Counted from the stretch's first letter, positions 3,601 to 17,691 are shown. The stretch is 64,000 bases of DNA from Lachnospiraceae bacterium (GCA_017622795.1 JAGAQI010000075.1:6477-70476), one strand, 5' to 3'. Translations and numbers: made by a program. Notes: generated by a model not told the origin, from the letters alone.

Positions 3601-4409
3601 TGGATTATAAATTAATTGTATTAGACATTGACGGAACATTAACCAATTCCCAAAAAGAAATTACGCCCCGCACCAAAGAGGCGTTAATCAAGATTCAGGA
3701 GCAGGGCGTGTATGTGGCAATCGCCAGCGGCCGCCCGACTCCGGGTACCAAGAAAGTAGCACAGGAACTGGAGCTTGCTCGCTTTGGCAACTATGTGCTG
3801 TCCTTTAACGGCGGCCGTGTTGTCAACTGCAAAACCGGAGAAGTGGTACTGGATAAGACGATTCCGGCTGAGATGGCAGGTATCCTTTGCGAGGAAGCCA
3901 GACAGCACGGTGTGGGTATCATGACCTATGACAGCGAGTGTGCTCTGGGTGGTACGGTCGTGGATCAGTATATGGAACTGGAAGCCCGCATCAACAGTAT
4001 CGAATTGAAGCAGGTGGGTCACTTTAAGGATTATGTAGATTTTCCGGTGAATAAATGCCTGATGACCGGAGAACCGGAACGCATGGCAGAACTGGAAAAA
4101 GAATTAAAGGAAAAGTATGCCGGAAGTCTGAATATCTTCCGTTCCGAGCCGTTCTTCCTGGAACTGATGCCAAAGGGCATAGATAAGGCCTCCGTACTGA
4201 AAAATTTCCTGCCGTTCCTTGGCATCACCAGAGACCAGGTGATTTGCTGCGGCGACGGTTATAACGACAAAACAATGATTGAGTTCGCCGGTCTTGGCGT
4301 GGCCATGGCCAATGCCAGAGATGAAGTAAAGGAAGTGGCGGATTATATCACAAAGTCTAACGATGAAGACGGCATTGCCGAGGTTGTGGAGCGGTTTATT
4401 TTGAAGTAA
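3600..4409 (+). CDS. Cof-type HAD-IIB family phosphatase
   Basis: 269 aa; HAD motif I LDIDGTL, motif IV GDGYNDKTM; start overlaps the trpS stop (TAATG). Confidence 0.85.
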   Translation: MDYKLIVLDIDGTLTNSQKEITPRTKEALIKIQEQGVYVAIASGRPTPGTKKVAQELELARFGNYVLSFNGGRVVNCKTGEVVLDKTIPAEMAGILCEEARQHGVGIMTYDSECALGGTVVDQYMELEARINSIELKQVGHFKDYVDFPVNKCLMTGEPERMAELEKELKEKYAGSLNIFRSEPFFLELMPKGIDKASVLKNFLPFLGITRDQVICCGDGYNDKTMIEFAGLGVAMANARDEVKEVADYITKSNDEDGIAEVVERFILK

Positions 4410-4437
4410 GTGTTTATAGTGTCTTTCCAAAGGGGAA

Positions 4438-6075
4438 ATGAAAAGCATGAATTATCGCACTATATTCACAATTAAAGAATCAGAAAAAGCAACTGTAGAG
4501 TTGGCAGATGTAGAGGGCTTGAAAGGTCCTGCCGTGGTAAAACGGCTAAAGGGTGCAAATGCCGATATTTACAGGTTGCTTTGTTGCACCCAAAATTTCC
4601 ATATTCCCCGGGTGTTTTTTTGTGAGGAGCAAAGCTGTGAGCTTCTTGTAGCAGAAGAATATGTGGATGGAGAAAATCTGGGTGAACTTCTGCAGAAAAG
4701 GCTGATTTCTGATGAGCAAAAGATTAATTATGCCCTGCAGCTTTGTGAAGCTGTGGGCTTTTTGCATACCCTGAAGCCGACCGTTATTCATAGGGATATC
4801 AAACTCTCCAACATTTTAATCAATGGAAAAAATGAATTGAAGCTGATAGATTTTGATGCGTCCAGACAGTATAAGAATTTCTCAAATGAAGAAGATACTA
4901 GATTGCTCGGAACAAAAGGATATGCTGCTCCGGAGCAGTTTGGGTATTCCCAGACGGATGTGCGCAGCGATATTTATTCCATGGGTGTGGTTTTTCACAA
5001 AATGTGCCCGTTGGAAAATAAAGTGTTGGCAAAACAGTGGGATAAAATTGCTGAAAAATGTACCAGCTTTGACCCGAAAAACCGTTATCAGAATGTGGCG
5101 GAATTAAAGCGGGAATTGGAAAAGCTGGCAGCGTGGAAGAAGGCAAGAAGAATAAAAAACACAGCTTGGATTGGCAGTATAACAGTGGTTTTGGTAGTGG
5201 CAGCGTTGGTGGCAGTATTGTGGCCGAAGGAAACAGAGGCCGGGGATATGGGCGGAATAACTGTGACAACTGCACCGACAACTGCACCGACAACTGTGCC
5301 GACAGATGCACCGACGTTGATACCGACAAGTATACCTACCCCGGAACCAACGGCAACAAGTACACCGACGCCGAAACCAACGGCAACAAATACACCAATG
5401 CCAACGGCAACAAGTGTACCGACGCCGACAATAAAGCCGGAGCTTTCGACGGTTCCGACATCAATAAACCAACACTATTATAAGGGTATGACGGAAGAAA
5501 CGGAACTAATATTAAAGCATGGTTCGGATACTGCGCCGTTACCGGTAACATGGAGTGGGGAATGCTATGATTATGTCACAGGTAAGAATTATTCTATTCC
5601 GATGGATGAGATAGAAATCGGTCCGGGATATATCCGGCTTTTGGATAGCGGACTGATGCAACTGGAACCGTCCATCTATGAGCTTACGATAACGATGCAT
5701 TATGCCAGCAGATGGCCTCAAAGTACCAGCCGGGTGTTAAAAATATATCCGGAAGATGAGTATCCGAAGAAGTCGAATGCAGTGATGGCGACTGGGACAA
5801 ATTATTTTTATTTGAATGATCCCACTGATTTTGTAAAGAATGTTCTGAGTACGGTGACCAGCAAATTCGTAGGGGTATCTGCAGAAATTCCGGGAATGGC
5901 TGCAGTGGAAGTGGATTCTGACTGGTATGAAATTCTTTGCGATGGTAAGGTGATGATTATTCAAAAAGAATTCTTGCAACAGTATTATGAAAACGACCAG
6001 AAAATTAATCTGATTTACCACTTTGATGATGGGAAGAATCAGACGATGGTGATTAATTACAAGGAGACAAGATAA
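4438..6075 (+). CDS. Atypical membrane Ser/Thr protein kinase with extracytoplasmic C-terminal domain (paralog 1)
   Basis: 545 aa; catalytic loop HRDIKLSNIL, DFD in place of DFG (LIDFDASR), APE (GYAAPEQ), VVKRLK lysine, no GxGxxG loop; TM WIGSITVVLVVAALVAVLW; Pro/Thr linker; ~210-aa C-terminal domain. Confidence 0.8.
   Translation: MKSMNYRTIFTIKESEKATVELADVEGLKGPAVVKRLKGANADIYRLLCCTQNFHIPRVFFCEEQSCELLVAEEYVDGENLGELLQKRLISDEQKINYALQLCEAVGFLHTLKPTVIHRDIKLSNILINGKNELKLIDFDASRQYKNFSNEEDTRLLGTKGYAAPEQFGYSQTDVRSDIYSMGVVFHKMCPLENKVLAKQWDKIAEKCTSFDPKNRYQNVAELKRELEKLAAWKKARRIKNTAWIGSITVVLVVAALVAVLWPKETEAGDMGGITVTTAPTTAPTTVPTDAPTLIPTSIPTPEPTATSTPTPKPTATNTPMPTATSVPTPTIKPELSTVPTSINQHYYKGMTEETELILKHGSDTAPLPVTWSGECYDYVTGKNYSIPMDEIEIGPGYIRLLDSGLMQLEPSIYELTITMHYASRWPQSTSRVLKIYPEDEYPKKSNAVMATGTNYFYLNDPTDFVKNVLSTVTSKFVGVSAEIPGMAAVEVDSDWYEILCDGKVMIIQKEFLQQYYENDQKINLIYHFDDGKNQTMVINYKETR
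5265..5437 (+). repeat. In-frame low-complexity Pro/Thr linker with imperfect tandem DNA repeats
   Basis: Reiterated acaactgcaccgaca and ccaacggcaacaa(g/a)tacacc units encode TTAPTTAPTT...PTATSTPTPKPTATNTPMPTATS. Confidence 0.8.
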
Positions 6076-6512
6076 TGGGGAACAAGGCGGGAGAAAAAGA
6101 TACTGCGTTTCTGCAGTCGGAGTTGAAAAAGACAGAGAACCTGGAACAATTTCTTCAGGAAAATTCCGAGGTTTTGAAACCAAAAACTGTACAGGAATAC
6201 TTAAATGAAATGTTGATAAAGTATAATTTGGAGAAAAGTGAAATCATTCGGAAATCAGGGTTATCGGGAACGTATGCCTACCAGATTTTTGACGGCAAGA
6301 AAAGTGCCGGACGGGACAAACTCATTCAGCTGGCATTTGGTTTTCCACTTAATCTGGAGGAGACCCAGAAACTGCTCCGCTTTGGTGGTCACAATGAGCT
6401 GTATGTGAAAAAGAAGAGAGAAGCTTTCGTGATGTATGCGTTGGGAAAAGAATATGATATTAATCAGGTAAACGATTTATTATATCAAAATGAGGAGAAG
6501 ACCTTTGAGTAG
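6075..6512 (+). CDS. Small XRE-like HTH protein (paralog 1), translationally coupled to kinase 1
   Basis: 145 aa; start overlaps the kinase stop (TAATG); HTH-like segment IIRKSGLSGTYAYQIFDGKKSAGRDKLIQLAFGFPLNLEETQKLL; paralogs at 6655, 12242 and 13026. Confidence 0.65.
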   Translation: MGNKAGEKDTAFLQSELKKTENLEQFLQENSEVLKPKTVQEYLNEMLIKYNLEKSEIIRKSGLSGTYAYQIFDGKKSAGRDKLIQLAFGFPLNLEETQKLLRFGGHNELYVKKKREAFVMYALGKEYDINQVNDLLYQNEEKTFE

Positions 6513-6526
6513 GTCTTCTTTTTTTT
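6497..6526 (+). terminator. Intrinsic terminator
   Basis: GAAGACCT (6497-6504) / AGGTCTTC (6511-6518) followed by T8. Confidence 0.7.
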
Positions 6527-6552
6527 AGTGTTTTTTTAACAAAATGGAAAAA

Positions 6553-6596
6553 TTATGCTGGCGGCACAAGAATTTCTGAAATAATTGCTTTAATAT
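6553..6596 (+). promoter_or_regulatory. Degenerate copy of the island palindrome box plus -10 (TAATAT)
   Basis: TTATGCTG-G-CGGCACAA (2 mismatches in the right arm) at 6553-6569; TAATAT at 6591-6596, the same 21-nt gap as the seven strong copies. Confidence 0.4.
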
Positions 6597-6654
6597 AAAT
6601 ATGTGGCATATCTGAGCAGATGGCCATGGGAGAAAAGAACGAGGTGTGCACTGC

Positions 6655-7113
6655 ATGAAAAAAGCAACGGAAGAATTGTTGAATGAACTGAAAGAGGCAA
6701 AGGCAATCAGCGAGTTTACCAGTATAAACGAGGGAGAATTTGAGAATATTTCTTTAACAGAAATTCTTGCACAAATGTTGGAAAAATATAAAAAGGCAAG
6801 AATAGATGTCATCAAAGCGGCAAGATTTGATTATACCTACGGATATCAGATTTTTGACGGAAAAAAGCGGCCCAAGAGGGAAAAACTGCTGCAGATGGCC
6901 TTTGGCTTTCCACTAAGCCTGGAGGATACCAACCGCTTACTACGTGCCGGTGGTGTAAATGGGCTGTATGTCCGCTGCAAGCGGGATGTAATCTGCATGT
7001 ACTGTCTTCATAAGGGGATGAGCCTGGAGGAATGTAATTCCTATTTATATCAGCTGGGAGAAGAGACTCTCATTGAGGAGGATAATGATGGGAGTGAAGG
7101 AATGAGAAAATAA
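6655..7113 (+). CDS. Small XRE-like HTH protein (paralog 2)
   Basis: ATG at 6655 (the ORF track begins at GTG 6646); YTYGYQIFDGKKRPKREKLLQMAFGFPLSLEDTNRLLRAGG aligns with the other paralogs. Confidence 0.65.
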   Translation: MKKATEELLNELKEAKAISEFTSINEGEFENISLTEILAQMLEKYKKARIDVIKAARFDYTYGYQIFDGKKRPKREKLLQMAFGFPLSLEDTNRLLRAGGVNGLYVRCKRDVICMYCLHKGMSLEECNSYLYQLGEETLIEEDNDGSEGMRK

Positions 7114-7160
7114 TTAAGAAATTAATTATAAATATACTTATTTAGAGAAGGAGAAAGAAA

Positions 7161-7346
7161 ATGATTTTACTATTAATTATCTATTGGATTGCCGGTTATT
7201 GGGCATATGGAGTTGTATTTTATGAAGGAAAGATTGTTATGGCAAGACAAGGGCAGATTTTTGCAACAAAATTAGTGCAGGGACTTGTTTTTGGTTGGTT
7301 ATGGATTCCGGTGGCACTCGTAAAGAAAATTTTTGGAATAAGATAA
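7161..7346 (+). CDS. Small two-TM membrane protein
   Basis: 61 aa; RBS GAAGGAGAAAG; two hydrophobic segments. Confidence 0.5.
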   Translation: MILLLIIYWIAGYWAYGVVFYEGKIVMARQGQIFATKLVQGLVFGWLWIPVALVKKIFGIR

Positions 7347-7371
7347 AGAAAAAATAAGGAGATTTTTAGAA

Positions 7372-8220
7372 ATGTGTAAAAGGTGTGAGTTGTGCCATTC
7401 AACTGATGCATATGAAACGAGGTTCGGTATTCAGCTTTGTATGGATTGTATGGATGGTTTTTGGAAAATAATGAAAAATGATACGATTGCAATACAAAAG
7501 TATGCGAAGGAAGAAATGTTTCCAAATGCAACGATGAATGCAAAACAGCAGATTGTTGGTTTAGCAAAGAGAAAGCTGGATGAAGGTCTTGAAAAGCTGG
7601 AACCCAGACATGTTGAAAAAATCGAACCATTACATATGGAGAAAGTTGAGACAAGAAATAAGATGACTACGGAAGACACTAAAGAAAATACTAAAGAAAA
7701 TATAAAACCACAGCAAGGAATTACTTTAACTTCCCCGGAGAGCTTGGACGATTTGTCTGCAAAGTGCAATATTATTTATGTGATTGGCATAATTGTGATG
7801 GCGCTTTTCTTTGGGAATATTATTCTCGGCATAATTTTTGGGCTGGTTGCAGGGTGGATTATAAAAGGACCGATGATATTAAAATCCGCAACCTATAAAT
7901 TTAGGACAATGGAATTTTTAATGCCTGCAAATATTACTCTTGAGGAAATATACAGGGAAATTTCCCCAAAGTTAAATTCACAGGAGCTGGATGTTACTTT
8001 ACAAGAAAATAATTTGGAGTTTCATCATGGTTCTATTCACTATCAGTTTTTGACGGACGGAACGGAAGGTACATTCCGGCTGAGATGGTATTATTCGGTG
8101 GCAAAAGCTATGCTTGGCTCAAGAGATATCCATGACTATAAGGTAGTAAGACAGGATACAGGTCTCATTGCGTATGCGATTCAGAATGTGTCGGTGGAAA
8201 ACGGAGATACGGTAAAATAA
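7372..8220 (+). CDS. Zinc-ribbon / TM / C-terminal domain protein, function unknown
   Basis: 282 aa; N-terminal CxxC...CxxC (CKRCELC...CMDC); TM IIYVIGIIVMALFFGNIILGIIFGLVAGWII; RBS AAGGAGA. Confidence 0.6.
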   Translation: MCKRCELCHSTDAYETRFGIQLCMDCMDGFWKIMKNDTIAIQKYAKEEMFPNATMNAKQQIVGLAKRKLDEGLEKLEPRHVEKIEPLHMEKVETRNKMTTEDTKENTKENIKPQQGITLTSPESLDDLSAKCNIIYVIGIIVMALFFGNIILGIIFGLVAGWIIKGPMILKSATYKFRTMEFLMPANITLEEIYREISPKLNSQELDVTLQENNLEFHHGSIHYQFLTDGTEGTFRLRWYYSVAKAMLGSRDIHDYKVVRQDTGLIAYAIQNVSVENGDTVK

Positions 8221-8300
8221 AAAAGCACCGGTACCATATTATTGTTTGAAGGTATCGGTTTTGATGCTACGAAATCAGTGATGGTTAACTAAATTATTTA

Positions 8301-8375
8301 TCATAATAAGAAAACTCGTCAAGGATGCGGATTCGTCCTGCTTTTCAGCAAGTCCTTGACGAGTTTTTATTATGA
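8301..8375 (+). terminator. Long composite hairpin, probable terminator
   Basis: TCATAATAAGAAAACTCGTCAAGGA (8301-8325) pairs with TCCTTGACGAGTTTTTATTATGA (8353-8375); 27-nt interior with small hairpins. Confidence 0.6.
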
Positions 8376-8446
8376 TATCCTGAACTTTGATTCCTCCCCA
8401 ACTTTCCGTATGTCTGATTATGATGTGGAGTATCTTTTTTGTGAAA

Positions 8447-8490
8447 TTATGCTGACAGCATAAGAAAAATAAATTAGAAAGTTTTATAAT
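8447..8490 (+). promoter_or_regulatory. Island palindrome box TTATGCTG-A-CAGCATAA plus -10 TATAAT
   Basis: Perfect 8+1+8 dyad at 8447-8463; TATAAT at 8485-8490 after a 21-nt gap; no -35 hexamer; 74 nt upstream of the 8564 start. Confidence 0.6.
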
Positions 8491-8563
8491 AGGATTGCAG
8501 CAAGCCCTCGGGCTTTATCGAACGGGTAAAAGCTGGTAGATAGTAAAGACATAGGAGGAAAAC

Positions 8564-9553
8564 ATGAAAAAGAATATTATTTGCATTATTTTGTTATCAA
8601 TGGTTTGTATGATGGCTGGCTGCCAGTCCAAGGAGGAAAAGGCTTATAAGACTTTAGATAAGGTTGAAGAGCTGACGGCAGAGGGAAAATATGAGGATGC
8701 CCTTAAAAAGCTTGATAAAATCCGGGAAGTAATTGACGTGGAGGATGCAGAGGAAGAAGTACTGTTGGAACGTAAGTATGCAAAGATTCCGGAGGGGGAT
8801 CTTACGGAAAAGGTTCAGGCAGACATAGAATTGGTTGGGGCTACTGACGAAGAACTGATAGGCTTTGACATTTCCTCTGTTACAGAAATTATTACAGACA
8901 GGGATACCATTGAGGATTATCTGGATTCCTATTTTTATGGGGATTGGTATAAGGAAGGTAAAAATAAGTCAATTGAATTTAACGAGTGGGAACTTGACGA
9001 GGAACAATATGGTGTATCCTATATGTTCCGTGTGTCAAATGAATACATAGATAACATTGTTGTAAAAATGTATGAAATGGGTAAGGCTGACAAAGTTTTT
9101 TGCGTTATGCTGGGCAGTTATTATCTGGGGCAGTTACTTGATGGTTACGCGAGCTACTATGAAATTTCTGTTGTGGATTCGAAAGGGAATGTGGAATCAT
9201 ACAGAGATCTTTCCAAGGATGACTTTGAGGAATTAGAGGCAGAGGTTGCCATGGTTTCTGACATGGCCATGATAGAGGAAGAAATTGTTGAAACCACCCA
9301 TGATTCTTTTCTGGAACGGAAAAAAGGAGAGTTTTCCAATATTTTGGATACGGCGTTTGTTTCTTCCGAAATCGTAGATTATTCCGTTACATATTCGGAA
9401 GGAAGCATTATTTGTAGCATGAAAGTGAAATATTATGAGAATAAGTATTCTGCTTTATGGGGTGGAAATTCGCAGATTTTCTACGTAACAGGAACATTTA
9501 ATTACAATAAAAGTACCGGTACCGCATCATTAGTTTCTTTGAATGTGGAGTAA
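8564..9553 (+). CDS. Lipoprotein, function unknown
   Basis: 329 aa; signal peptide with lipobox MMAGC; RBS AGGAGG. Confidence 0.7.
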   Translation: MKKNIICIILLSMVCMMAGCQSKEEKAYKTLDKVEELTAEGKYEDALKKLDKIREVIDVEDAEEEVLLERKYAKIPEGDLTEKVQADIELVGATDEELIGFDISSVTEIITDRDTIEDYLDSYFYGDWYKEGKNKSIEFNEWELDEEQYGVSYMFRVSNEYIDNIVVKMYEMGKADKVFCVMLGSYYLGQLLDGYASYYEISVVDSKGNVESYRDLSKDDFEELEAEVAMVSDMAMIEEEIVETTHDSFLERKKGEFSNILDTAFVSSEIVDYSVTYSEGSIICSMKVKYYENKYSALWGGNSQIFYVTGTFNYNKSTGTASLVSLNVE

Positions 9554-9571
9554 GAAAAGGAGAAACAGAGG

Positions 9572-10198
9572 ATGGAGATTTTTTCGATTATATTGGGCAT
9601 TGTAGTGATACTTGTAATTATTGCATATATCTCGTCACAGATAAGAAAAAACCAGATGGATGAAGAAAGTAAGACAGATGAGAAAAGTGAAGAAGATGCA
9701 TTGTTTGAAGGCATCGATTTTGACGCAATGAAACCGGAAGAAGTTATTCCTTTAGAAGTGTATGAAGTAGAAGAGAATGTAATTACTGAAGAGGAACCGG
9801 TTCCCGGGGAACAGCAAGCTTCAACGCAAGAACCTCAAGCAGACGCTGCTCCTGCTAAACCGGTATTTGTTACAGATGCAGAAACAAGCAGCGGACAAAC
9901 GTATGAAAAGGTTCTTTCCACAGAAGATAAGAGGGAATGGATTGCAAATTTCGTTAGTATTAAGCGGTTTGTTGCTGCGGGTTGGACCTGCATGGGACTC
10001 GGTCTGGGATTCATTTTAGGGCGGCTTCTTGGCGATAATGTTGTCATGGTCTTGCTGATTATACTTGGAGGATTTATCGGGGGAGTATTCGGAACAAACT
10101 CTGTAGGCGCTGCCATGATGAAAGTTATTGCGGCAGAGCAAAGTATTTTAAATGAGGAACTGCTGAAAGAAATTTTAAAACGGTTGGAGGAAAAGTAA
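9572..10198 (+). CDS. Membrane protein with acidic linker and C-terminal glycine-zipper TM pair
   Basis: 208 aa; N-terminal TM; acidic stretch; GLGLGFILGRLLG...LGGFIGGVFG glycine-zipper segments. Confidence 0.65.
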   Translation: MEIFSIILGIVVILVIIAYISSQIRKNQMDEESKTDEKSEEDALFEGIDFDAMKPEEVIPLEVYEVEENVITEEEPVPGEQQASTQEPQADAAPAKPVFVTDAETSSGQTYEKVLSTEDKREWIANFVSIKRFVAAGWTCMGLGLGFILGRLLGDNVVMVLLIILGGFIGGVFGTNSVGAAMMKVIAAEQSILNEELLKEILKRLEEK

Positions 10199-10374
10199 AA
10201 GGGTGAATGAAACGTTTGTATTAACAGGATGTGGAGAGTACACCCTTCAAGAGAATTCAAACAGTAGTGTGCTTAAAGCAAGCAACCGGAGAACAAATAG
10301 AAGATTTGCTTTTAGCCGCTAAAAAGGCAGGTGTAACAGCAACGGATTTGCAGAAACTTGGATTGGAATAATGC

Positions 10375-10411
10375 GAAAAGCATGTCGAGTTTAATCTGGC
10401 ATGCTTTTTTT
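10375..10411 (+). terminator. Intrinsic terminator
   Basis: AAAAGCATG (10376-10384) / CATGCTTTT (10400-10408) running into a T tract. Confidence 0.6.
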
Positions 10412-10425
10412 CAATATAACTTCTT

Positions 10426-10454
10426 TTGACTTTTATCGGAAATAGGTATATACT
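10426..10454 (+). promoter_or_regulatory. Sigma-A type promoter for the kinase 2 operon
   Basis: TTGACT (10426-10431), 17-nt spacer, TATACT (10449-10454). Confidence 0.6.
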
Positions 10455-10484
10455 ATACGTAGATTTTTAAAGGTGGGGAAACCT

Positions 10485-12221
10485 ATGGGATTCGAGTATA
10501 TTACGTTGGAGACATTAAAGAAATCGGATAAAGCCATTATCGAAGTTGCCATGATGGATGACTATCCGGAAAGGGTAGTTGTAAAGCACTTAAAAGGTGT
10601 AAACATCAATTTGTTTCACCAGATATCTTTTTTACATAGTGTTTATATCCCAAAGATTTATAAATGCGAGTTGGATGGAGAATGGTTTGTTGTTATAGAA
10701 GAGTATCTGGAAGGTGAGAATCTGGAAAAATATTTGCGCGAACACCGCCTTACGGATAAGCAGAAATTGGATATTGCCCTGCAATTATGTGAGGCAGTAA
10801 AGTGTCTGCATGCGTTGCAACCGCCAATTATTCACCGTGATATTAAACCGCATAATATTATTGTTAACGAACATGGAGCATTAAAATTAATAGATTTTGA
10901 TGCTTCCCGCTATTATAGAGAAGATGATAACCGTCAGGACACCCGTCTCCTTGGTACTCCGGAATATGCACCGCCGGAACAATACGGCTATTCCCAGACA
11001 GACGTCCGCAGCGATATCTATTCTATGGGTATGGTATTTAAGGAATTGAATCTGACGGAAAAGAAGTTTCTTGTTTCCGAATGGGAAAAAATGGTTGGCA
11101 AGTGCAGAAATTTTGACCCGAAGCATCGGTACCAGACTGTGGATGAGCTGGAAAAAGAAATTAAGAAAATGGCGTTCTTACGCACGATTACCGGAAAAAC
11201 AGTGCTTGGCTGGACAGCAGCCGTTTTACTGTTATTGATAGTATTGTGGCAAGGCTGTATGCTTACCCGCAATAATGATGCAGGTGCAAGTAATCAAAAT
11301 GAAGTAACCGGTATGCCAACTCCAACGGAGGTTGTGCAGGAATCAGTAACACTGGAGCCGAAAGCAACAAGTACACCTGTGCCAACGGAAACACCAACAC
11401 AAGCGGTTGAACCAACTGCAGAACCAACGGCAACAAATACGCCTGTGCCGACAGAAACGCCAACGCCTGTGCCGACGGAAATGCCGGCGAGTGTAAATTC
11501 GCTGATTCCGGGAGTAGAAACAGTAGAAGAATTGGATGCATATTTTGCAAGTACGAATTTATATGTGTACAATTTTTATCGAAGCATTGCAGAACAAACA
11601 AAATTTTATATCGGTGTGGATAGTTTACTTGATACAAGCTGGAAATTTGATAAAATTACCTTTACAAATTATGAAACCGGGGTGGAAGTAGAGGTTCCGG
11701 CTTCGATGATAGATTTGGAAAGCGAAATCATATCGGTATCTAATGATTTTTTATTGGGGCTGGAAGATACCTATTACCAAGTAATAATATATATAACAAA
11801 TGGTGAGAGTTCACTTCCAGCCATGAGTACGGTAGTTAAAGTTTCCGAAGCTGTGGATGAAACAGGACATATACGTGCATTAGGGCGTGACTGGGTAACA
11901 TTCTATGCGCAGTATCCGACAGATATTATTATCACTTCAAACAGCGAGAATGTTTTGAAGATGGAAAAGCTTTATATTTGCCAAAGTGGTATTTATCCGG
12001 ATGGTATCCCTGAGATTTTGGATGCGGAAATATTAACTGAAGTTAATCCGGCTAATTATGAAATCATGGATGCCGGAAAAATGATGAAGCTTAGTAAAGA
12101 ACTTTTAGCAGGTTATTCTAATGAAAGCCGGGTGATTTTTGCTGCACTATGCAATGATGGAAATTATTGGCGGATTGTAGTAGAATATGATAACGGAAAG
12201 CCATACTGGATGCCACAATAA
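10485..12221 (+). CDS. Atypical membrane Ser/Thr protein kinase with extracytoplasmic C-terminal domain (paralog 2)
   Basis: ATG 10485 behind RBS AAAGGTGGGG (the track starts at GTG 10473); HRDIKPHNII, LIDFDASR, EYAPPEQ; TM; Pro/Thr linker; kinase domain clearly paralogous to 4438-6075, C-terminal domain divergent. Confidence 0.8.
   Translation: MGFEYITLETLKKSDKAIIEVAMMDDYPERVVVKHLKGVNINLFHQISFLHSVYIPKIYKCELDGEWFVVIEEYLEGENLEKYLREHRLTDKQKLDIALQLCEAVKCLHALQPPIIHRDIKPHNIIVNEHGALKLIDFDASRYYREDDNRQDTRLLGTPEYAPPEQYGYSQTDVRSDIYSMGMVFKELNLTEKKFLVSEWEKMVGKCRNFDPKHRYQTVDELEKEIKKMAFLRTITGKTVLGWTAAVLLLLIVLWQGCMLTRNNDAGASNQNEVTGMPTPTEVVQESVTLEPKATSTPVPTETPTQAVEPTAEPTATNTPVPTETPTPVPTEMPASVNSLIPGVETVEELDAYFASTNLYVYNFYRSIAEQTKFYIGVDSLLDTSWKFDKITFTNYETGVEVEVPASMIDLESEIISVSNDFLLGLEDTYYQVIIYITNGESSLPAMSTVVKVSEAVDETGHIRALGRDWVTFYAQYPTDIIITSNSENVLKMEKLYICQSGIYPDGIPEILDAEILTEVNPANYEIMDAGKMMKLSKELLAGYSNESRVIFAALCNDGNYWRIVVEYDNGKPYWMPQ
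11313..11486 (+). repeat. In-frame Pro/Thr-rich linker, low complexity
   Basis: Encodes PTPTEVVQESVTLEPKATSTPVPTETPTQAVEPTAEPTATNTPVPTETPTPVPTE with reiterated cctgtgccgac(a/g)gaaa units. Confidence 0.75.
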
Positions 12222-12241
12222 ATTACATCGGAGGAATATTT

Positions 12242-12697
12242 ATGGGAATCAAAGACGAAAAACCAACGGTACTCATGGATTCTGAAATGACAAAGCTCAG
12301 AAATGAAAATGATTTGGATAAGTTTCTGGAAGAGAATGATGACAATATGTTTACTCTTCGGGTAAGGGACTTTCTGATGAAGATGATGGTTCAGTATGAT
12401 ATGGATAAAAAGGATATCATTCCACGTTCCGGCCTAGCTACCTCTTATGCTCATAATATATTCAATGGCGATAAAGGGGACAAAGCAAAATACGGCAGAG
12501 ATAAGCTGATTATGTTGGCAATTGGTTTTCCTCTTACTTTGGAAGAAACCAATAAACTGTTGAAATATGGCGGACATAGTCCGTTGTATTCCAAGAACAG
12601 ACGGGATGCTATTATAATGTTTGCCATCGGGAAGCAATATTCTTATATAAAAACCAATGAGTGTTTGGATGAGCACGGGGAAGAACCGTTAGTGTAA
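12242..12697 (+). CDS. Small XRE-like HTH protein (paralog 3), downstream partner of kinase 2
   Basis: 151 aa; RBS GGAGGAA; SYAHNIFNGDKGDKAKYGRDKLIMLAIGFPLTLEETNKLLKYGG aligns with the paralogs. Confidence 0.65.
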   Translation: MGIKDEKPTVLMDSEMTKLRNENDLDKFLEENDDNMFTLRVRDFLMKMMVQYDMDKKDIIPRSGLATSYAHNIFNGDKGDKAKYGRDKLIMLAIGFPLTLEETNKLLKYGGHSPLYSKNRRDAIIMFAIGKQYSYIKTNECLDEHGEEPLV

Positions 12698-12712
12698 AAT
12701 AAGTAAAATGAA

Positions 12713-12753
12713 GAGAACAAGTAGTGTTTTTAAATACTGCTTGTTCTTTTTTT
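12713..12753 (+). terminator. Intrinsic terminator
   Basis: AGAACAAGTAGT / ACTGCTTGTTCT stem followed by T7. Confidence 0.7.
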
Positions 12754-12769
12754 GTGCAAAGAAACAGGT

Positions 12770-12813
12770 TTATGCTGCCAGCATAACAAGTGGGGTAGGA
12801 AAAGAAGTAAACT
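12770..12813 (+). promoter_or_regulatory. Island palindrome box TTATGCTG-C-CAGCATAA plus -10 TAAACT
   Basis: Perfect dyad at 12770-12786; TAAACT at 12808-12813 after a 21-nt gap. Confidence 0.55.
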
Positions 12814-12870
12814 AAAGTTGCAAAATCAAACAAAGCAGAGCTTTCTTAAAAGTAAAGGAGGATCAATATT

Positions 12871-13026
12871 ATGACTATAGTGATGGAATTAAGAAAATGT
12901 ACTGCATGCGGAAAAAAATATAGCTTTAATCCTGCTATAGGACATTTTAACTGTCCACATTGCAGAGGTTTAGGAAAAATCAAAAAGGGGCCGAAGAGAA
13001 AACCCAAGAAGGGAGGAATTTTCTGA
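12871..13026 (+). CDS. 51-aa zinc-ribbon microprotein with basic tail
   Basis: Absent from the ORF track (under 60 aa); RBS AAGGAGGA 7 nt upstream; MTIVMELRKCTACGKKYSFNPAIGHFNCPHCRGLGKIKKGPKRKPKKGGIF has CxxC...CxxC. Confidence 0.5.
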   Translation: MTIVMELRKCTACGKKYSFNPAIGHFNCPHCRGLGKIKKGPKRKPKKGGIF

Positions 13027-13241
13027 TGCAGGAAACCTATAAGAGAGTTGAACTGCTAAAAAAATCTTTGGCAAATGCACTATCTTTAGAAGCCACTAAT
13101 CAAATGCTACGTTTGGGTGGTGAACCGGAATTGTATTCGAAAAACAGACGGGATGCAATTTGTATGTTTTGCATAAATCTGCAGATGGGATTGGAAAAGT
13201 GCAACGAATTGCTGGAGCGGTACGATGAGGTGACACTGTAA
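13026..13241 (+). CDS. Truncated paralog of the island HTH family (C-terminal half only)
   Basis: ATG 13026 overlaps the upstream TGA (TGATG); LSLEATNQMLRLGGEPELYSKNRRDAICMFCI matches the C-terminal half of the paralogs; recognition-helix region absent. Confidence 0.5.
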   Translation: MQETYKRVELLKKSLANALSLEATNQMLRLGGEPELYSKNRRDAICMFCINLQMGLEKCNELLERYDEVTL

Positions 13242-13401
13242 GAGAACTAAATATTGGAAAACTTGGCAGAAACTATGGATGTCAAGCTTGTTGTTTTTAC
13301 AAATGAAATAGGAATATACAACAATTGTGAGGAAATGGATGCTCGGACAGTTGGTGCGTCCGAAAAGAAACTCTTTAAACTATTCCGTTGGTTAGGTAGT
13401 T

Positions 13402-13445
13402 TTATGCCGGCAGCATAACAAAATGGACGTGAAGTGAGGTAAGCT
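13402..13445 (+). promoter_or_regulatory. Island palindrome box TTATGCCG-G-CAGCATAA plus weak -10 TAAGCT
   Basis: Dyad with one mismatch at 13402-13418; TAAGCT at 13440-13445 after a 21-nt gap. Confidence 0.45.
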
Positions 13446-13485
13446 GAAATTACAAAGAAACCATTGTAGTGAAGGAGGAACGAAC

Positions 13486-13719
13486 ATGAGCTTAGAAAAC
13501 AAAATAATTGATTATGCAATCAGTCATTATTATGAAATGCCAAAAACAATTCAAAAGAAAATGGTAACGGAAGGAAAGAAGTATATTGAGAGAGAGCATC
13601 CGATTGCAAGTATGTTTATGCCGGATTCGACCAAAGAGAAATGTGTGAAAAGTTATTTTAATTCAAAAGCAAACTGCACATCAATTGGGACTTGTTTTAG
13701 CAAATGTATTAGCGTATAG
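13486..13719 (+). CDS. Hypothetical 77-aa protein
   Basis: RBS GAAGGAGGAA; no recognisable motif; Cys/Ser/Thr-rich C-terminus NCTSIGTCFSKCISV. Confidence 0.5.
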   Translation: MSLENKIIDYAISHYYEMPKTIQKKMVTEGKKYIEREHPIASMFMPDSTKEKCVKSYFNSKANCTSIGTCFSKCISV

Positions 13720-13741
13720 ACGCGGAAAGAGAGGAAATATC

Positions 13742-14128
13742 ATGACTACAGAAAAAGAATTAGCAAACGCTATCGAGAGAAATGAAAATGAAATCGTAAT
13801 TGAAGGCGACTTAAGTAACAAGGTAATTCGAATTAAGGCCACCGGAGCTGTAGCCTGGGGCGCCTGTATTATAGGACTCGGCGCAGTGGTTGCTCTTGGA
13901 ATTGCCACCGCAGGAAGCGGAGGAACAGCTACTCTGATTACGCTACCGGCAATGGGCGCTGCGTTAATGACTACTGCTCCGGTTGCAGTTGCCAGCATGG
14001 GTCTTCCAGCAGCGGTTTCTGCAGTGGGAATTGCTATGGCAGGCGGTGGTTGCGGTGTATTGAATAAGCTCAGGGATTACAAGCTGGTTAAGGTAAGCAA
14101 GGATAAAGTGATTCTTTACCGGAAGTAA
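13742..14128 (+). CDS. Gly/Ala-rich membrane protein (glycine-zipper type)
   Basis: ATG 13742 behind GAGAGGAAA (the track starts earlier, at 13685); soluble N-terminus TEKELANAIERNENEIVIEGDL, then a long Gly/Ala hydrophobic region, then a basic tail. Confidence 0.6.
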   Translation: MTTEKELANAIERNENEIVIEGDLSNKVIRIKATGAVAWGACIIGLGAVVALGIATAGSGGTATLITLPAMGAALMTTAPVAVASMGLPAAVSAVGIAMAGGGCGVLNKLRDYKLVKVSKDKVILYRK

Positions 14129-14129
14129 T

Positions 14130-14173
14130 TTATGCTACCAGCATAACAAACATAAAGCTACAACATATATAAT
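14130..14173 (+). promoter_or_regulatory. Island palindrome box TTATGCTA-C-CAGCATAA plus -10 TATAAT
   Basis: Dyad with one mismatch at 14130-14146, starting 2 nt after the upstream stop codon; TATAAT at 14168-14173 after a 21-nt gap. Confidence 0.6.
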
Positions 14174-14236
14174 TACAAATGTAAACAACAGACAAGTAAG
14201 TCTGAAAACGAATTTAATCCATAGGAGGAAAATGAA

Positions 14237-15205
14237 ATGAAAAAAGATTTTTATGAAGCATTAGAACAAGACATCGTAGGTTTAGGACTAGCAGAAGAGG
14301 AAAAGAGTAAGTTGTTAAAGCATATTATGCAGCTGAAGGCTCAGAAACTGAATATCATGGTAGTCGGAGGAACCGGCTGTGGTAAGAGTTCCACTATCAA
14401 CGCATTATTTGATGCTCCGGTTGCCAAAGTAGGAGAACGTCCGGATCCGGAAACCATGACGATTGAAAAGTATGAATTAGACAACCTGATTTTGTGGGAC
14501 ACACCGGGACTTGGTGATGGTAAAGAAGCCGACAAAAAGCATGCAAAAAACATTATTGACAAGCTTGTTGAAAAGGATAGCGATGGTAAGGCACTAATCG
14601 ATTTGGTATTAGTAATTCTCGATGGTTCCAGTAGAGACATGGGAACGTCCTTTGAGTTAATTAACAATGTGATCATTCCTAATTTAGGCGAAGAGCAAAA
14701 GGAAAGAATTCTGGTTGCTATCAACAAAGCTGATATGGCTAAGCCAAGACATTGGGATTACAACAAAAATGAACCGGATGAGATTCTGAAAGAGTTTCTG
14801 GAAGAGAAAATCAAGTCCGTGAAAAAGAGAATCAAGGAATCTACCGGCGTTGATGTAAATCCGATTTATTATTGCGCAGGCGATATGGATGATGGTGAGC
14901 AGCGCAAGGCATACAATCTGACAAAGCTCTTATGTTGGATGATTAAGGCAACTCCAACAGAAAAAAGAATTGTTTATGCAAATAATATGAATCAACAGCC
15001 TGAAATATGGGTAGATGACGATGAAATCATGGACTATGGTCAGGAAATCAGAAAAGATATCTGGGGCTCTGTTACAGAGGGTGCAGGTGTTGGCGGTGCC
15101 ATTGGTGAAGCAATCGGAACTATTTTCCATTGTGGACCGATAGGAAGAGCTGTCGGCACGGCAGTTGGTGCTGTAGTAGGATTCTTCTGTGGTATCTTTG
15201 GTTAA
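14237..15205 (+). CDS. Small P-loop GTPase (MMR_HSR1/YfjP-like) with C-terminal glycine-zipper tail (paralog 1)
   Basis: 322 aa; G1 GGTGCGKSS, G3 WDTPGLGD, G4 NKAD; C-terminal GAGVGGAIGEAIGTIF...GRAVGTAVGAVVGFFCGIFG. Confidence 0.8.
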   Translation: MKKDFYEALEQDIVGLGLAEEEKSKLLKHIMQLKAQKLNIMVVGGTGCGKSSTINALFDAPVAKVGERPDPETMTIEKYELDNLILWDTPGLGDGKEADKKHAKNIIDKLVEKDSDGKALIDLVLVILDGSSRDMGTSFELINNVIIPNLGEEQKERILVAINKADMAKPRHWDYNKNEPDEILKEFLEEKIKSVKKRIKESTGVDVNPIYYCAGDMDDGEQRKAYNLTKLLCWMIKATPTEKRIVYANNMNQQPEIWVDDDEIMDYGQEIRKDIWGSVTEGAGVGGAIGEAIGTIFHCGPIGRAVGTAVGAVVGFFCGIFG

Positions 15206-15213
15206 TAGAGTTG

Positions 15214-15255
15214 GAAGCCCAAGCGTGATTTGTACCGTTTGGGCTTCTCTTAATA
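15214..15255 (+). terminator. Probable terminator
   Basis: GAAGCCCAAGCG / CGTTTGGGCTTC stem; weak T tract (TCTTAATAAT). Confidence 0.55.
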
Positions 15256-15265
15256 ATAAACAACT

Positions 15266-15309
15266 TTATGCTGCCAGCATAACAAACCATGGTAAAAACA
15301 AGTTATAAT
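15266..15309 (+). promoter_or_regulatory. Island palindrome box TTATGCTG-C-CAGCATAA plus -10 TATAAT
   Basis: Perfect dyad at 15266-15282; TATAAT at 15304-15309 after a 21-nt gap. Confidence 0.6.
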
Positions 15310-15354
15310 AAAATTACAAAATAACACAAAACAAATCCAAAGGGGGTAAATAAT

Positions 15355-15591
15355 ATGTTTTTTGATTTTATTTCTGATTTAGTAATTGGCGCCTGTGATC
15401 TGGGATTTAAGCTGGATAGTGCTATATTTGGTGATTCTTCTGCTGATGCCGATGCACTTATGAAAGTGATTTTAAATGCGACTCAGAATGAAGAGGCAGA
15501 GGATACATACGTAGAAGCTGACGTTAAGTCCGCGGACGGAACAAGTACGATAGCTACAAGTATTGAAGGCATTAAAAAACACGTTTATTAA
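15355..15591 (+). CDS. Small hydrophobic-acidic protein with conserved KHVY C-terminal tail (paralog 1)
   Basis: 78 aa; RBS AAGGGGG; hydrophobic N-terminus, acidic middle, C-terminus IATSIEGIKKHVY matching 17262-17474. Confidence 0.6.
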   Translation: MFFDFISDLVIGACDLGFKLDSAIFGDSSADADALMKVILNATQNEEAEDTYVEADVKSADGTSTIATSIEGIKKHVY

Positions 15592-15617
15592 TAGGAACCG
15601 TTAAGGAGGAAAAAGAG

Positions 15618-16322
15618 ATGAAGAGAAATATTATGTTAGTCGGAGGAACCGGCTATGGTAAAAGTTCTACAATCAATGCATTGTGTAATACTCCGGTGGC
15701 AGCGGTAGCGGCTCTTGAAGAACCGGAAACAAAAGAAATCAGGAAGTATGAAACGGATAACATGGTTCTTTGGGACACACCGGGAATCGGTAGCAGTGTA
15801 GAAGAAGACAGTAAAAATATAGAGGCTTTAAAAAGTATGCTTCGTGAAAAAGACGAAGCAGGAAATCTGTTAATTGCTCAGGTGGTGCTTGTGATGGATG
15901 CCGGAAGCAGAGATATGGGGACTTCTTTTGAACTGCTCAATGACGTAATTGTTCCAAACTTAGGTGACAACCGTAAAGACAGAATTTTAGTGGCTTTAAA
16001 CCGTTGCGATGCAGTAAAGCCTAGAAACTGGAACTATGAAGCAAATGAGCCGGATGAAGTACTTAAGCAATTTCTAGAGGAAAAGGCAGAATCTGTAAAA
16101 ACAAGAATTTCAGAGTCTATCGGTATAGATGTTGAAGTTATTTATTACTGTGCCGGCGAGACAGAGAATGACGAACAGAGTCCGGCTTATAATTTGGATA
16201 AACTGGTTGCTAAGCTGATGGAGGTGACAACAACTGAGAGTGTGGTGGCTGAAAGAAACATCACTGTACAAAAGAAGGAATCTTTTATCAAGAGAATGAT
16301 CCGCAGACTTTTTGGTCGCTAA
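15618..16322 (+). CDS. Small P-loop GTPase (paralog 2)
   Basis: 234 aa; G1 GGTGYGKSS, G3 WDTPGIG, G4 variant NRCD; basic amphipathic C-terminus KESFIKRMIRRLFGR; RBS AAGGAGGA. Confidence 0.8.
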   Translation: MKRNIMLVGGTGYGKSSTINALCNTPVAAVAALEEPETKEIRKYETDNMVLWDTPGIGSSVEEDSKNIEALKSMLREKDEAGNLLIAQVVLVMDAGSRDMGTSFELLNDVIVPNLGDNRKDRILVALNRCDAVKPRNWNYEANEPDEVLKQFLEEKAESVKTRISESIGIDVEVIYYCAGETENDEQSPAYNLDKLVAKLMEVTTTESVVAERNITVQKKESFIKRMIRRLFGR

Positions 16323-16330
16323 TTCATAAT

Positions 16331-16369
16331 GAGGCAGACAGTATAAGCTGTTTGCCTCTCCTTCTTTTA
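16331..16369 (+). terminator. Intrinsic terminator
   Basis: GAGGCAGACAG / CTGTTTGCCTC stem followed by TCCTTCTTTTAT. Confidence 0.65.
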
Positions 16370-16387
16370 TGGCGAAAAGAACTGATA

Positions 16388-16431
16388 TTATGCTGTCAGC
16401 ATAACAATATGAGTTACAAAAGATCTATACT
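16388..16431 (+). promoter_or_regulatory. Island palindrome box TTATGCTG-T-CAGCATAA plus -10 TATACT
   Basis: Perfect dyad at 16388-16404; TATACT at 16426-16431 after a 21-nt gap. Confidence 0.6.
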
Positions 16432-16477
16432 TAAGATACAAGATAACAAATGAATTGTTACATAAGAGGAGGTAAAT

Positions 16478-17161
16478 ATGAATAGCGTATATAGACAAAA
16501 TGATATTGAAAGAAATGCCAAGAGAGCAGGGTTTTACCCAATGGATATTGTGGTAGTCGGAGGAACCGGAGCCGGAAAATCATCTACAATGAATGCACTT
16601 TTTGAGAAGGAAGTAGCGAAGGTAGGACACGGATGTGACCCGGAAACCAGCAAGAACAGTCATAAAGAATTGAACCAGTATTTACGTTTCTGGGATACAC
16701 CGGGATTCGGAGACAGCGTGGAAAAGGATAAAAAATATGCAAAGGACTTAATTAAGCTGCTAAATGAGTCCTGGACGGATAATGGAAGAACAATATATGG
16801 TGCAATCGATATGGTTATCGTTATTTTGGATGGTTCTGGTAGGGATATGGGAACCACCTATAAAATTTTGAATGAGGTAGTGCTTCCAAACTTCCCAAGT
16901 GATCGGATTTTGATGGCAATCAACCAGGCAGATGCAGCAAAGAGTCCAAAGCATTGGAATAATCAAAAAAATGAACCGGATGAAGTGTTGAAGAGCTTTT
17001 TAGAAGAAAAAGCAATTTCTGTAAAACGGAGAATTGAAGAAGCCACTGGAACCAGAGTATGTAAGCCGGTGTACTATTCAGCAGAAAAGGAATATAACGT
17101 TGAAAAATTATTAGATATGATAATTGATAATATGCCAACTTCGAGAAGAAAGATACAATAA
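16478..17161 (+). CDS. Small P-loop GTPase (paralog 3)
   Basis: 227 aa; G1 GGTGAGKSS, G3 WDTPGFGD, G4 variant NQAD; shares the DMGT..(L/I)N.V..PN and NEPDE(I/V)LK.FLEEK blocks with paralogs 1 and 2. Confidence 0.8.
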   Translation: MNSVYRQNDIERNAKRAGFYPMDIVVVGGTGAGKSSTMNALFEKEVAKVGHGCDPETSKNSHKELNQYLRFWDTPGFGDSVEKDKKYAKDLIKLLNESWTDNGRTIYGAIDMVIVILDGSGRDMGTTYKILNEVVLPNFPSDRILMAINQADAAKSPKHWNNQKNEPDEVLKSFLEEKAISVKRRIEEATGTRVCKPVYYSAEKEYNVEKLLDMIIDNMPTSRRKIQ

Positions 17162-17164
17162 AGT

Positions 17165-17208
17165 TTATGCTGTCAGCATAACAATTGAACGGAGAAAAGA
17201 AATATAAT
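17165..17208 (+). promoter_or_regulatory. Island palindrome box TTATGCTG-T-CAGCATAA plus -10 TATAAT
   Basis: Perfect dyad at 17165-17181, starting 4 nt after the GTPase 3 stop; TATAAT at 17203-17208 after a 21-nt gap. Confidence 0.6.
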
Positions 17209-17261
17209 TAAATCATAAAGAAACACAAAAAAGAAAAAAGATGTTTAAGGGAGCAAAAAAA

Positions 17262-17474
17262 ATGGCATTAGGTTTATTAACTAGTTTAGCATTAGGAGCA
17301 GTAGGGTTGGTCAGTGCAGGAGCAATTGTTACAAACAGTTCCGGTGGTTCTGTTTATTACGGTTCTACTTATGAGGATAACGATGAAGAATGGGATGATG
17401 AGTGGGAAGATGAAGATGAGGAAATCACAGAGGTGGCTACCAGTATTAGAGGCATCAGCAAGCATGTGTATTAA
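17262..17474 (+). CDS. Small hydrophobic-acidic protein with conserved KHVY C-terminal tail (paralog 2)
   Basis: ATG 17262 behind AAGGGAG (the track starts at 17241); hydrophobic N-terminus MALGLLTSLALGAVGLVSAGAIV, acidic run EDNDEEWDDEWEDEDEE, C-terminus VATSIRGISKHVY. Confidence 0.6.
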   Translation: MALGLLTSLALGAVGLVSAGAIVTNSSGGSVYYGSTYEDNDEEWDDEWEDEDEEITEVATSIRGISKHVY

Positions 17475-17498
17475 ATATAACATTAGTTAGTTCATAAT

Positions 17499-17543
17499 AA
17501 ATCCTTTCTTGTTTTTCTAAAGTATCTACAAGGATTTTTATTG
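17499..17543 (+). terminator. Intrinsic terminator
   Basis: AAATCCTT (17499-17506) / AAGGATTT (17530-17537) followed by TTTATT. Confidence 0.6.
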
Positions 17544-17691
17544 AAAGGCCTTATCACCCTTGCAGTAAGATAAAAATCCCGGTGACTCAGCAGGAGACAA
17601 AGTCCGGTGAAGCAAAAAGCTTTGCCGGAACTTAGAGGGGATGAAAAGATAGTAACTTGGCTAACATAAATTTTTTTACGGAGATGGAAAC

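Follow-up and report, generated by a model that had tools for sequence, protein, structure and literature searches.

Bacterial Hanks-type kinases, also called eSTKs (Ser/Thr kinases of the eukaryotic-like kind), are usually described as having pleiotropic, non-exclusive targets (PMC4601284), and few of them have a defined path from signal to promoter. Can such a path be recognized where a membrane kinase gene is followed directly by the gene of a small DNA-binding protein? The question is raised by a 64,000-nucleotide stretch of a Lachnospiraceae bacterium genome (GCA_017622795.1, JAGAQI010000075.1:6477-70476), called here the window, in which an original prediction described two pairs of this kind between positions 4438 and 12697. 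In each pair a membrane Ser/Thr kinase (K1 or K2) precedes a small helix-turn-helix (HTH) protein (H1 or H3). The comparisons presented below make it probable that K1-H1 and K2-H3 are two self-contained signalling cassettes, two-component-like in operation, each made of a Hanks-type receptor kinase and a stand-alone activator of the Cro/C1-XRE fold. The kinase would use its variable β-sandwich ectodomain to sense a cue outside the cytoplasm and would phosphorylate the cognate HTH protein, most likely on Thr10. An HTH dimer would bind a 17-bp dyad, (T/G)T(A/G)TGC-N5-GCA(T/C)A(A/C), centred near -42 at promoters that lack a -35 element, and the bound protein would recruit the sigma-A RNA polymerase in class-II-type activation.

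Two kinase-HTH cassettes

K1 (4438-6075, plus strand, 545 aa) is a single-pass membrane Hanks-type Ser/Thr kinase. Its cytoplasmic kinase domain covers about residues 1-220, the transmembrane segment lies within a helix at 220-261, a Pro/Thr linker occupies 266-335, and the extracytoplasmic β-domains extend over 345-542. The gene is located after trpS and a HAD hydrolase gene and is followed by H1 (6075-6512, plus strand, 145 aa), a Cro/C1-XRE-fold protein whose ATG overlaps the TAA stop of K1 by one base (TAATG at 6073-6077). An intrinsic-terminator-like hairpin with a T-run (6492-6523, plus strand) ends the K1-H1 unit. K2 (10485-12221, plus strand) is a membrane Ser/Thr kinase paralogous to K1, from which its ectodomain has diverged. 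A mechanical list of open reading frames (ORFs) starts it at GTG 10473, but ATG 10485 is the better start because the ribosome-binding site aaaggtgggg precedes it at 6-7 nt. H3 (12242-12697, plus strand), a paralogue of H1 with a different recognition helix (SYAHNIFNG), begins 20 nt after K2 and has a GGAGG ribosome-binding site. A consensus -35/-10 scan finds a sigma-70-like promoter, TTGACT-17-TATACT, just 5' of K2 (10426-10454, plus strand), and K2-H3 appears to be transcribed from this predicted promoter of its own, independently of the dyad.

The coordinates of the four genes, the TAATG overlap and the 20-nt gap between K2 and H3 agree with the ORF check. The region had been described as duplicated two-gene modules; both pairs are real, but two further paralogues of the HTH proteins had been omitted. 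One is H2 (6655-7113, plus strand, 152 aa from ATG 6655), a third full-length member that does not follow a kinase and stands behind a dyad promoter. A database protein resembling H2 (P0004) has the same length, 152 aa, and orthologues of H2 are found on the same contigs as orthologues of H1. The other is truncated (12960-13241, plus strand), holding only the C-terminal half of the family without the recognition helix, with 46% identity to residues 84-150 of H3. It could be a pseudogene remnant or, by analogy with EmbR2 versus EmbR, a dominant-negative anti-activator.

The small HTH proteins

H1, H2 and H3 are 42-46% identical in pairwise comparison, and the consensus motif proposed for the HTH partners is real. 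None of the three matches a Pfam or NCBIfam HTH model at E<0.1. A profile of the family searched against PDB by sequence returned only noise (best E=0.21), so that a fold search was needed to identify the proteins. The AlphaFold2 model of H1 is all-helical, with a predicted local distance difference test score (pLDDT) of 89.8; helices 54-61 and 65-72 form the HTH, and the recognition helix reads GTYAYQIFDG. Nearly all of the top 50 Foldseek matches of H1 are Cro/C1-XRE proteins (DdrO, 434 Cro, C.AhdI, C.Esp1396I, HigA, ClgR), with HipB also present. The best of them have a target-normalised template-modelling score of about 0.65-0.78 and a root-mean-square deviation of about 2 Å, but weak E values of 0.06-0.4. 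Among 46 diverse members of the family, 18 match XRE-type profiles at E<0.01 (HTH_31 in 10, HTH_3 in 5, HTH_26 in 2 and HTH_19 in 1). The earlier label XRE-like is right, resting on the predicted fold and on the HTH_31 and HTH_3 matches of more distant relatives, and the small proteins appear to be a divergent XRE branch without a profile model of its own.

At E≤1e-3 the family comprises 3164 clusters of 50% identity, a number that falls to 1560 at E≤1e-10, and nearly all its members are stand-alone proteins of about 140 aa. Its clusters, at least 3164 in number, are spread over Clostridia and further gut anaerobes, chiefly the Lachnospiraceae, Oscillospiraceae and Erysipelotrichaceae of gut and rumen, groups whose regulation is not well understood. 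Conservation is highest in the recognition helix, (T/S)Y.(Y/H)Q(I)F(D/N)G. In an N-terminal extension, outside the HTH, Thr10 is found in 95 of the 96 HTH ORFs of the genome set described below; across the 46 diverse members only three columns are invariant, and Thr10 is among them. Such conservation makes Thr10 a candidate phospho-acceptor.

Kinase-HTH pairing across genomes

A scan of genomes for relatives of the small proteins gave 78 loci, one of which (L001) is a copy of part of the window, leaving 77 others. They come from Lachnospiraceae, Oscillospiraceae, Erysipelotrichaceae, Christensenellaceae, Peptococcaceae and one Gastranaerophilales metagenome-assembled genome. A kinase-like ORF of the K1/K2 kind is present at 72 of the 77 other loci. 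The nearest kinase lies within 600 bp for 78 of the 96 HTH ORFs (counts that include L001), and these close pairs are arranged with the HTH gene first (H>K) in 37 cases, the kinase gene first (K>H) in 24, divergently in 15 and convergently in 2. When the neighbouring ORFs are clustered, the kinase (74 loci) and the HTH protein (71 loci) are the only recurrent families, the next being present at 9 loci. Pairwise identities of adjacent kinases and HTH proteins are correlated (r=0.80 versus at most 0.10 in permutations), a correlation to which shared phylogeny contributes. No kinase-HTH fusion of the 'Rosetta stone' type was seen among the top 150 representatives, which include only a few tandem HTH duplications. 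A survey of adjacency had been suggested as a check of the one-sensor, one-regulator idea; the pairing is conserved outside the source genome, in three gene orders, and the comparative results support the idea.

The dyad and its promoter geometry

The 17-bp dyad, TTATGCTG-N-CAGCATAA, occurs at eight sites between 6553 and 17181, in an island of low G+C content, versus 0.37 expected; a ninth match at 23253, with 3 mismatches, was set aside. All eight sites are intergenic, lie 5' of plus-strand genes, and are separated from a TAnnnT -10-like hexamer by exactly 21 nt (8/8). None of the eight dyad promoters was found in the -35/-10 consensus scan of the window, and they have no -35 element. If the hexamer is set at -12 to -7, the dyad falls at -50 to -34, with its centre near -42. 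The fixed spacing from dyad to -10 and the missing -35 favour activation as the predicted sign of regulation, rather than repression, and by analogy with lambda cI at PRM the geometry points to a class-II activator position.

Along the plus strand, a degenerate dyad, TTATGCTGGCGGCACAA, followed after 21 nt by TAATAT (6553-6596), is the predicted promoter of H2. A perfect dyad, TTATGCTGACAGCATAA, with TATAAT at the same distance (8447-8490), is predicted to serve a lipoprotein gene (8564-9553) and a membrane protein gene (9572-10198). The perfect dyad at 12770-12813, with TAAACT 21 nt away, would drive a 51-aa zinc-ribbon ORF (12871-13026, CxxC...CxxC) and then the truncated HTH paralogue (12960-13241). 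Two dyads with 1 mismatch each follow, again with the 21-nt interval: one with TAAGCT (13402-13445), the predicted promoter of 13486-13719 and 13685-14128, and one with TATAAT (14130-14173), that of a GTPase gene (14237-15205). Perfect dyads at 21 nt from TATAAT (15266-15309), TATACT (16388-16431) and TATAAT (17165-17208) are the predicted promoters, respectively, of 15355-15591 together with a second GTPase gene (15618-16322), of a third GTPase gene (16478-17161), and of 17241-17474, possibly also 17692-18042; all eight promoters read in the plus direction. The putative regulon thus holds H2, the truncated paralogue, lipoprotein and envelope proteins, three paralogous GTPases and several small membrane or acidic proteins, whereas K1-H1 and K2-H3 themselves have no dyad. 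H1 and H2 have the TY.YQIFDG helix that goes with TATGC half-sites, and H3 (SYAHNIFNG) does not. Because the recognition helix of H3 differs, H1 and H2 are the better candidates for binding the dyad. A dyad also lies between the H1-like and H2-like genes of related genomes (L002-L004), and the arrangement suggests that H2 may be an induced second-tier regulator.

The geometry recurs elsewhere. Over all loci, 67 sites of the form T(A/G)TGC-N5-GCA(C/T)A have the 21-nt spacing, and no other spacing is represented by more than 14. Allowing at most 1 mismatch, TTATGC-N5-GCATAA occurs at 33 sites in 24 other loci, versus 2.0 in shuffled sequences, and 21 of the 33 are no more than 113 bp from an HTH ORF. 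More distant H>K loci have GTGTGC-N5-GCACAC in the same architecture, the usual layout being dyad-H-K-dyad-target. The genes behind dyad promoters in relatives include that of the HTH protein itself (13 cases) and mostly encode signal-peptide or membrane proteins. The putative targets lie next to the module, vary between lineages and for the most part encode proteins that are secreted or belong to the envelope.

Half-sites tend to shift from TATGC to TGTGC together with the recognition helix, as a cognate protein-operator pair would predict. Loci with the TY.YQIFDG (Y..D) helix go with TATGC dyads (15, versus 0 with TGTGC), and those with TYGHQIFNG (H..N) go with TGTGC (7, versus 1), the counts being phylogenetically non-independent. 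Both dyad types are present at three of the four loci with both helix classes (L039-L041). There, for instance in L041 at 4227-8205, two full modules adjoin, with helices TYGHQIFNG and TYLYHILSG, each near its own dyad (TGTGC and TATGC, respectively). These loci are a natural test case for operator specificity.

The association also holds in the reverse direction. An exact-match scan of metagenome contigs for the dyad gave 120 stretches, of which 36 have the geometry of 21 nt and a -10. A protein of the HTH family is encoded in 18 of these 36, with a kinase too in 13 of the 18, versus 1 of the 84 stretches without the geometry. The earlier proposal that the HTH proteins bind the island palindrome gains comparative support from this search, from recurrence of the dyad near HTH genes and from the helix trend; H1 and H2 would be favoured over H3 in that role.

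The kinases

K1 and K2 are paralogous, with 35% identity over their full length (E=1e-94) and far higher identity in the kinase domain. They match the Pfam Pkinase model (PF00069) with 104.1 and 101.7 bits, respectively, versus a cut-off of 31.7. Both carry VVK(R/H)LK, HRDIKxxN, DFD and APEQ, and the position of the glycine-rich loop, GxGxxG, is filled by KESEKATV in K1 and KKSDKAII in K2, so that all the kinase motifs originally read from the two genes are indeed there. Residue counts over 78 related kinases give these features a family context. HRD, the catalytic Asn, the Asp of DFx and APEQ are present in 78/78, DT and GT of the activation loop are invariant, and the β3 Lys is found in 68/78. 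GxGxxG is found in 0/78, and the third residue of DFx is G in 36, D in 32 and E in 6. The missing glycine-rich loop is thus a trait of the family, and DFD is a local trait, not family-wide. The conserved catalytic residues argue for what would be a catalytically constrained enzyme.

The AlphaFold2 model of K1 (pLDDT 82.7) has a canonical N-lobe, with β1 at 6-14, β2 at 18-25, β3 at 31-37 and αC at 42-49, in which the β1-β2 hairpin is intact. The activation loop and the Pro/Thr linker are disordered, a long helix runs across the membrane (about 220-261), and two β-domains (345-437 and 455-542) are predicted with confidence. The model of K1 thus bears out the layout originally assigned to the kinases, a transmembrane segment, a Pro/Thr linker and an extracytoplasmic domain. 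The best Foldseek match of K1 is PknB of Mycobacterium tuberculosis (E=6e-14), and the predicted fold fits solved kinase domains. With the full-length model Foldseek returned kinases only, and the ectodomain was not classified past a weak likeness of the last β-domain to CBM_X2 (19.9 bits in K1, under the cut-off, and 29.5 in an orthologue of greater length). With the ectodomain of K1 alone, a search for homologues was empty. This emptiness is a limit of word-index sensitivity and not absence, because the full-length query then recovered orthologues.

Two known kinase types were considered and rejected. The NCBIfam model of PASTA kinases (NF033483; PknB/PrkC/Stk1) scores 107.7 and 114 bits versus a cut-off of 450, over the kinase core only, and the ectodomain here is a β-sandwich. 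CD2148 of Clostridioides difficile, an atypical clostridial kinase that may be a pseudokinase, lacks the catalytic Asp and Asn (PMC9674922), both of which are kept in the present family. Two tandem kinases without a glycine-rich loop, one with LRR_5 repeats in its ectodomain, lie beside a GH10 xylanase gene in L203 (4001-9760) and L204, with no HTH gene within 4 kb. They suggest kinase-only clusters, possibly for polysaccharide-related sensing.

Alternatives to the proposed dedicated phosphorelay

Phosphotransfer from kinase to HTH protein is favoured, short of proof, because the catalytic residues are conserved, because a Thr outside the DNA-binding domain is near-invariant and because the pairing survives three gene orders. 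Several observations weigh against it. The family-wide absence of the glycine-rich loop means that ATP binding, and with it activity, is not assured. The correlation of kinase and HTH identities and the helix/dyad trend are both confounded by shared ancestry. Conservation of Thr10 could be structural, for example through capping of a helix N-terminus. Transcription start sites were placed from -10-like hexamers, and the case as a whole is comparative. A TGTGC-type dyad, the candidate operator for H3, occurs in the window at chance level only. Clustering of neighbouring ORFs revealed no recurrent PP2C phosphatase, or any third conserved partner, around the pair. Lastly, when four further kinases without the glycine-rich loop were taken from the list of K1 homologues, two had a pair of HTH genes each in the 2 kb upstream, and the other two had no HTH gene within 4 kb; adjacency is weaker from kinase to HTH than from HTH to kinase.

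The last observation bears on the alternative that survives best, although it is unlikely. The HTH protein might bind and activate at the dyad without being a substrate of the kinase, their adjacency reflecting co-regulation only, with the kinase operon under control of the HTH protein, and the kinase might have other, pleiotropic targets. The dyad 5' of the H-K operon in H>K loci, which implies autoregulation, would fit this possibility, as would the two sampled kinases with no HTH gene nearby and the pleiotropy generally ascribed to eSTKs (PMC4601284). However, neither K1-H1 nor K2-H3 is behind a dyad in the window, and yet the pairing is kept. It also persists through three gene orders, the divergent one included. 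Moreover, co-regulation leaves the near-invariant Thr10 outside the DNA-binding domain without explanation, and the HTH protein has no sensor domain of its own.

Slightly less likely again is that the kinase is a dead or weak pseudokinase serving as a scaffold, which would tether the HTH protein at the membrane, in the manner of an anti-sigma factor or anti-activator, and free it upon ligand binding. A loop missing throughout the family, replacement of DFG by DFD or DFE in roughly half the members, and the precedent of CD2148, itself possibly a pseudokinase (PMC9674922), are what one would expect of such a scaffold. But unlike CD2148 the family keeps HRD, the Asn, the Mg-binding Asp and APE without exception, and also the Thr residues of the activation loop, with the β3 Lys kept in 68/78; such a pattern is hard to explain without catalysis. 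In the predicted structure, moreover, the N-lobe has an intact β1-β2 hairpin.

Very improbable is a toxin-antitoxin like HipBA, or an anti-phage unit built on a kinase (of the PD-T4-6, Stk2 or MADS kind), in which an XRE protein would be the antitoxin or repressor. In its favour, HipB is an XRE HTH protein encoded beside a kinase and, like HigA, is among the fold matches, the kinase core matches the PADLOC models PD-T4-6, mad6 and Stk2 and the NCBIfam MAD6 model, and the island is low in G+C with GTPases and a GIY-YIG ORF. But the defence matches are to a generic catalytic core (K1 residues 52-190 only in PADLOC) and far under cut-offs (MAD6 66 and 81 bits versus 460; BREX PglW 21 and 24 bits versus 990), the kinases have Pkinase and no HipA domain in Pfam and are membrane receptors with large ectodomains, gene order varies, the operator is at an activator position and not over the promoter, and around the pair there is no conservation of further defence genes.

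A dedicated phosphorelay from kinase to HTH protein can also be put in a more general form. Tentatively, at a little under even confidence, the module may represent an unrecognised and widespread class of signal transduction in bacteria, a dedicated 'Hanks two-component system', in which a receptor kinase without a glycine-rich loop would act on one cognate XRE-fold activator, with Thr10 as the receiver residue and an operator at -42. If true, a class of kinases dedicated to one substrate would contradict the common picture of bacterial eSTKs as few in number and pleiotropic.

Relation to known systems

The gene pknH adjoins embR, and PknH has an extracytoplasmic sensor domain. PknH phosphorylates the activator EmbR on Thr and thereby stimulates promoter binding, the interaction being FHA-mediated (PMC4601284). 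The likeness to the present module, shared by AfsK/AfsR of Streptomyces, is that a membrane Hanks kinase is encoded beside a transcription activator. However, EmbR is a SARP protein (OmpR-type winged HTH plus BTA) that docks through FHA, whereas the regulator here is a 145-aa all-helical Cro/C1 protein without an FHA match in Pfam, the kinase has no glycine-rich loop, and the cassette is mobile and multiply duplicated across Clostridia. In a second mycobacterial pair, pknL (Rv2176) is a neighbour of Rv2175c, and PknL is essentially without an ectodomain. PknL phosphorylates Rv2175c at a single site, Thr9, which lies before the HTH in an N-terminal extension that is flexible and disordered (PMC4601284). 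Here too the regulator consists of a DNA-binding domain only, and Thr9 parallels the near-invariant Thr10. Unlike the small proteins described above, Rv2175c is an atypical winged HTH protein whose extension is reported to be unique to M. tuberculosis (PMC4601284), whereas conservation of Thr10 extends over a family with more than 3000 clusters of 50% identity.

Classical two-component systems differ in their domains, since K1, K2 and H1-H3 have no HisKA, HATPase_c or receiver match in Pfam or NCBIfam, and Ser/Thr phosphorylation would here replace His-Asp transfer. The module works like a two-component system but is not one by its defining features.

Activation by Cro/C1-fold dimers from a dyad near -42, abutting -35, is familiar from lambda cI at PRM, the C-proteins of restriction-modification systems and PlcR. 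Two C-proteins, C.AhdI and C.Esp1396I, are among the best fold matches of H1. The PlcR box, which we take to be TATGNAN4TNCATA, shares the outer TATG/CATA with the dyad and is 1 bp longer, a likeness that serves as a lead only. None of these regulators is known to be paired with or controlled by a protein kinase, and PlcR has a TPR peptide-sensing domain. Conversely, an XRE HTH gene adjoins a protein kinase gene in HipBA and in the WhiJ-type clusters of Streptomyces (XRE, DUF397 and anti-sigma-like kinase). However, HipA is a toxin of the cytoplasm with a PI3/4-kinase-like fold, and in Streptomyces the partners belong to the GHKL (RsbW-like) kinases; in neither case is the kinase a membrane receptor of the Hanks type. 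By defining features the present kinases are not PASTA kinases, HipBA or known defence kinases. The module differs from known pairs of eSTK and transcription factor in its protein families, in the lack of a glycine-rich loop, in a defined operator in activator register and in being a portable, duplicated cassette. No description of the kinase-HTH module was found in the literature searched, and the motifs associated with transcription start sites in Clostridium phytofermentans are unrelated to the dyad (PMC5171806).

The comparison yields a complete circuit that can be tested: a sensor kinase, a single regulator with candidate Thr10, an operator, and a promoter that predicts activation. If confirmed, it would be a new module type for censuses of signal transduction, would provide a rule by which regulons of uncultured gut Firmicutes could be predicted, and would offer orthogonal kinase/activator/operator sets with two specificities, TATGC and TGTGC.

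The surrounding island

The region from H1 to the ORF at 18318 (about 6000-18000) has a G+C content of 0.37-0.40, versus 0.43-0.46 in the flanks. Related genomes in which K1-H1-H2 is retained (L002-L004) differ in the genes that they have there, and the island looks like a variable cargo region with the dyad at all of its promoters. A 61-aa membrane ORF, MILLLIIYWIAGYWAYG..., lies at 7161-7346; small ORFs that resemble it immediately follow dyad promoters in L005 (from 3870) and in L064 (from 4958), and it may be a recurrent member of the regulon. A perfect 15-bp inverted repeat, AAAACTCGTCAAGGA / TCCTTGACGAGTTTT, with a 27-nt loop (8311-8367), is located about 90 nt past the stop of the gene at 7372-8220 and about 80 bp 5' of the dyad at 8447, and was not picked up as a terminator.

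The three paralogous small GTPases (14237-15205, 15618-16322 and 16478-17161) are each behind their own dyad promoter. The first, which has a glycine-zipper membrane anchor at its end, matches MMR_HSR1 and AIG1 and shows a weak likeness to LeoA in the P-loop region. Two small acidic proteins, encoded at 15355-15591 and 17241-17474, have a common C-terminal motif, ATSI(E/R)GI(K/S)KHVY. In other genomes these GTPase and acidic-protein genes (14237-17474) are not conserved with the module. An ORF with a GIY-YIG nuclease domain (17692-18042; Pfam E=1.8e-7) stands at the end of the low-G+C island. Two imperfect palindromes, both long (18114-18155 and 18178-18236), come after it and lie just 5' of the ORF at 18318-19490, which, from a reading of its sequence, we take to resemble the nuclease SbcD.

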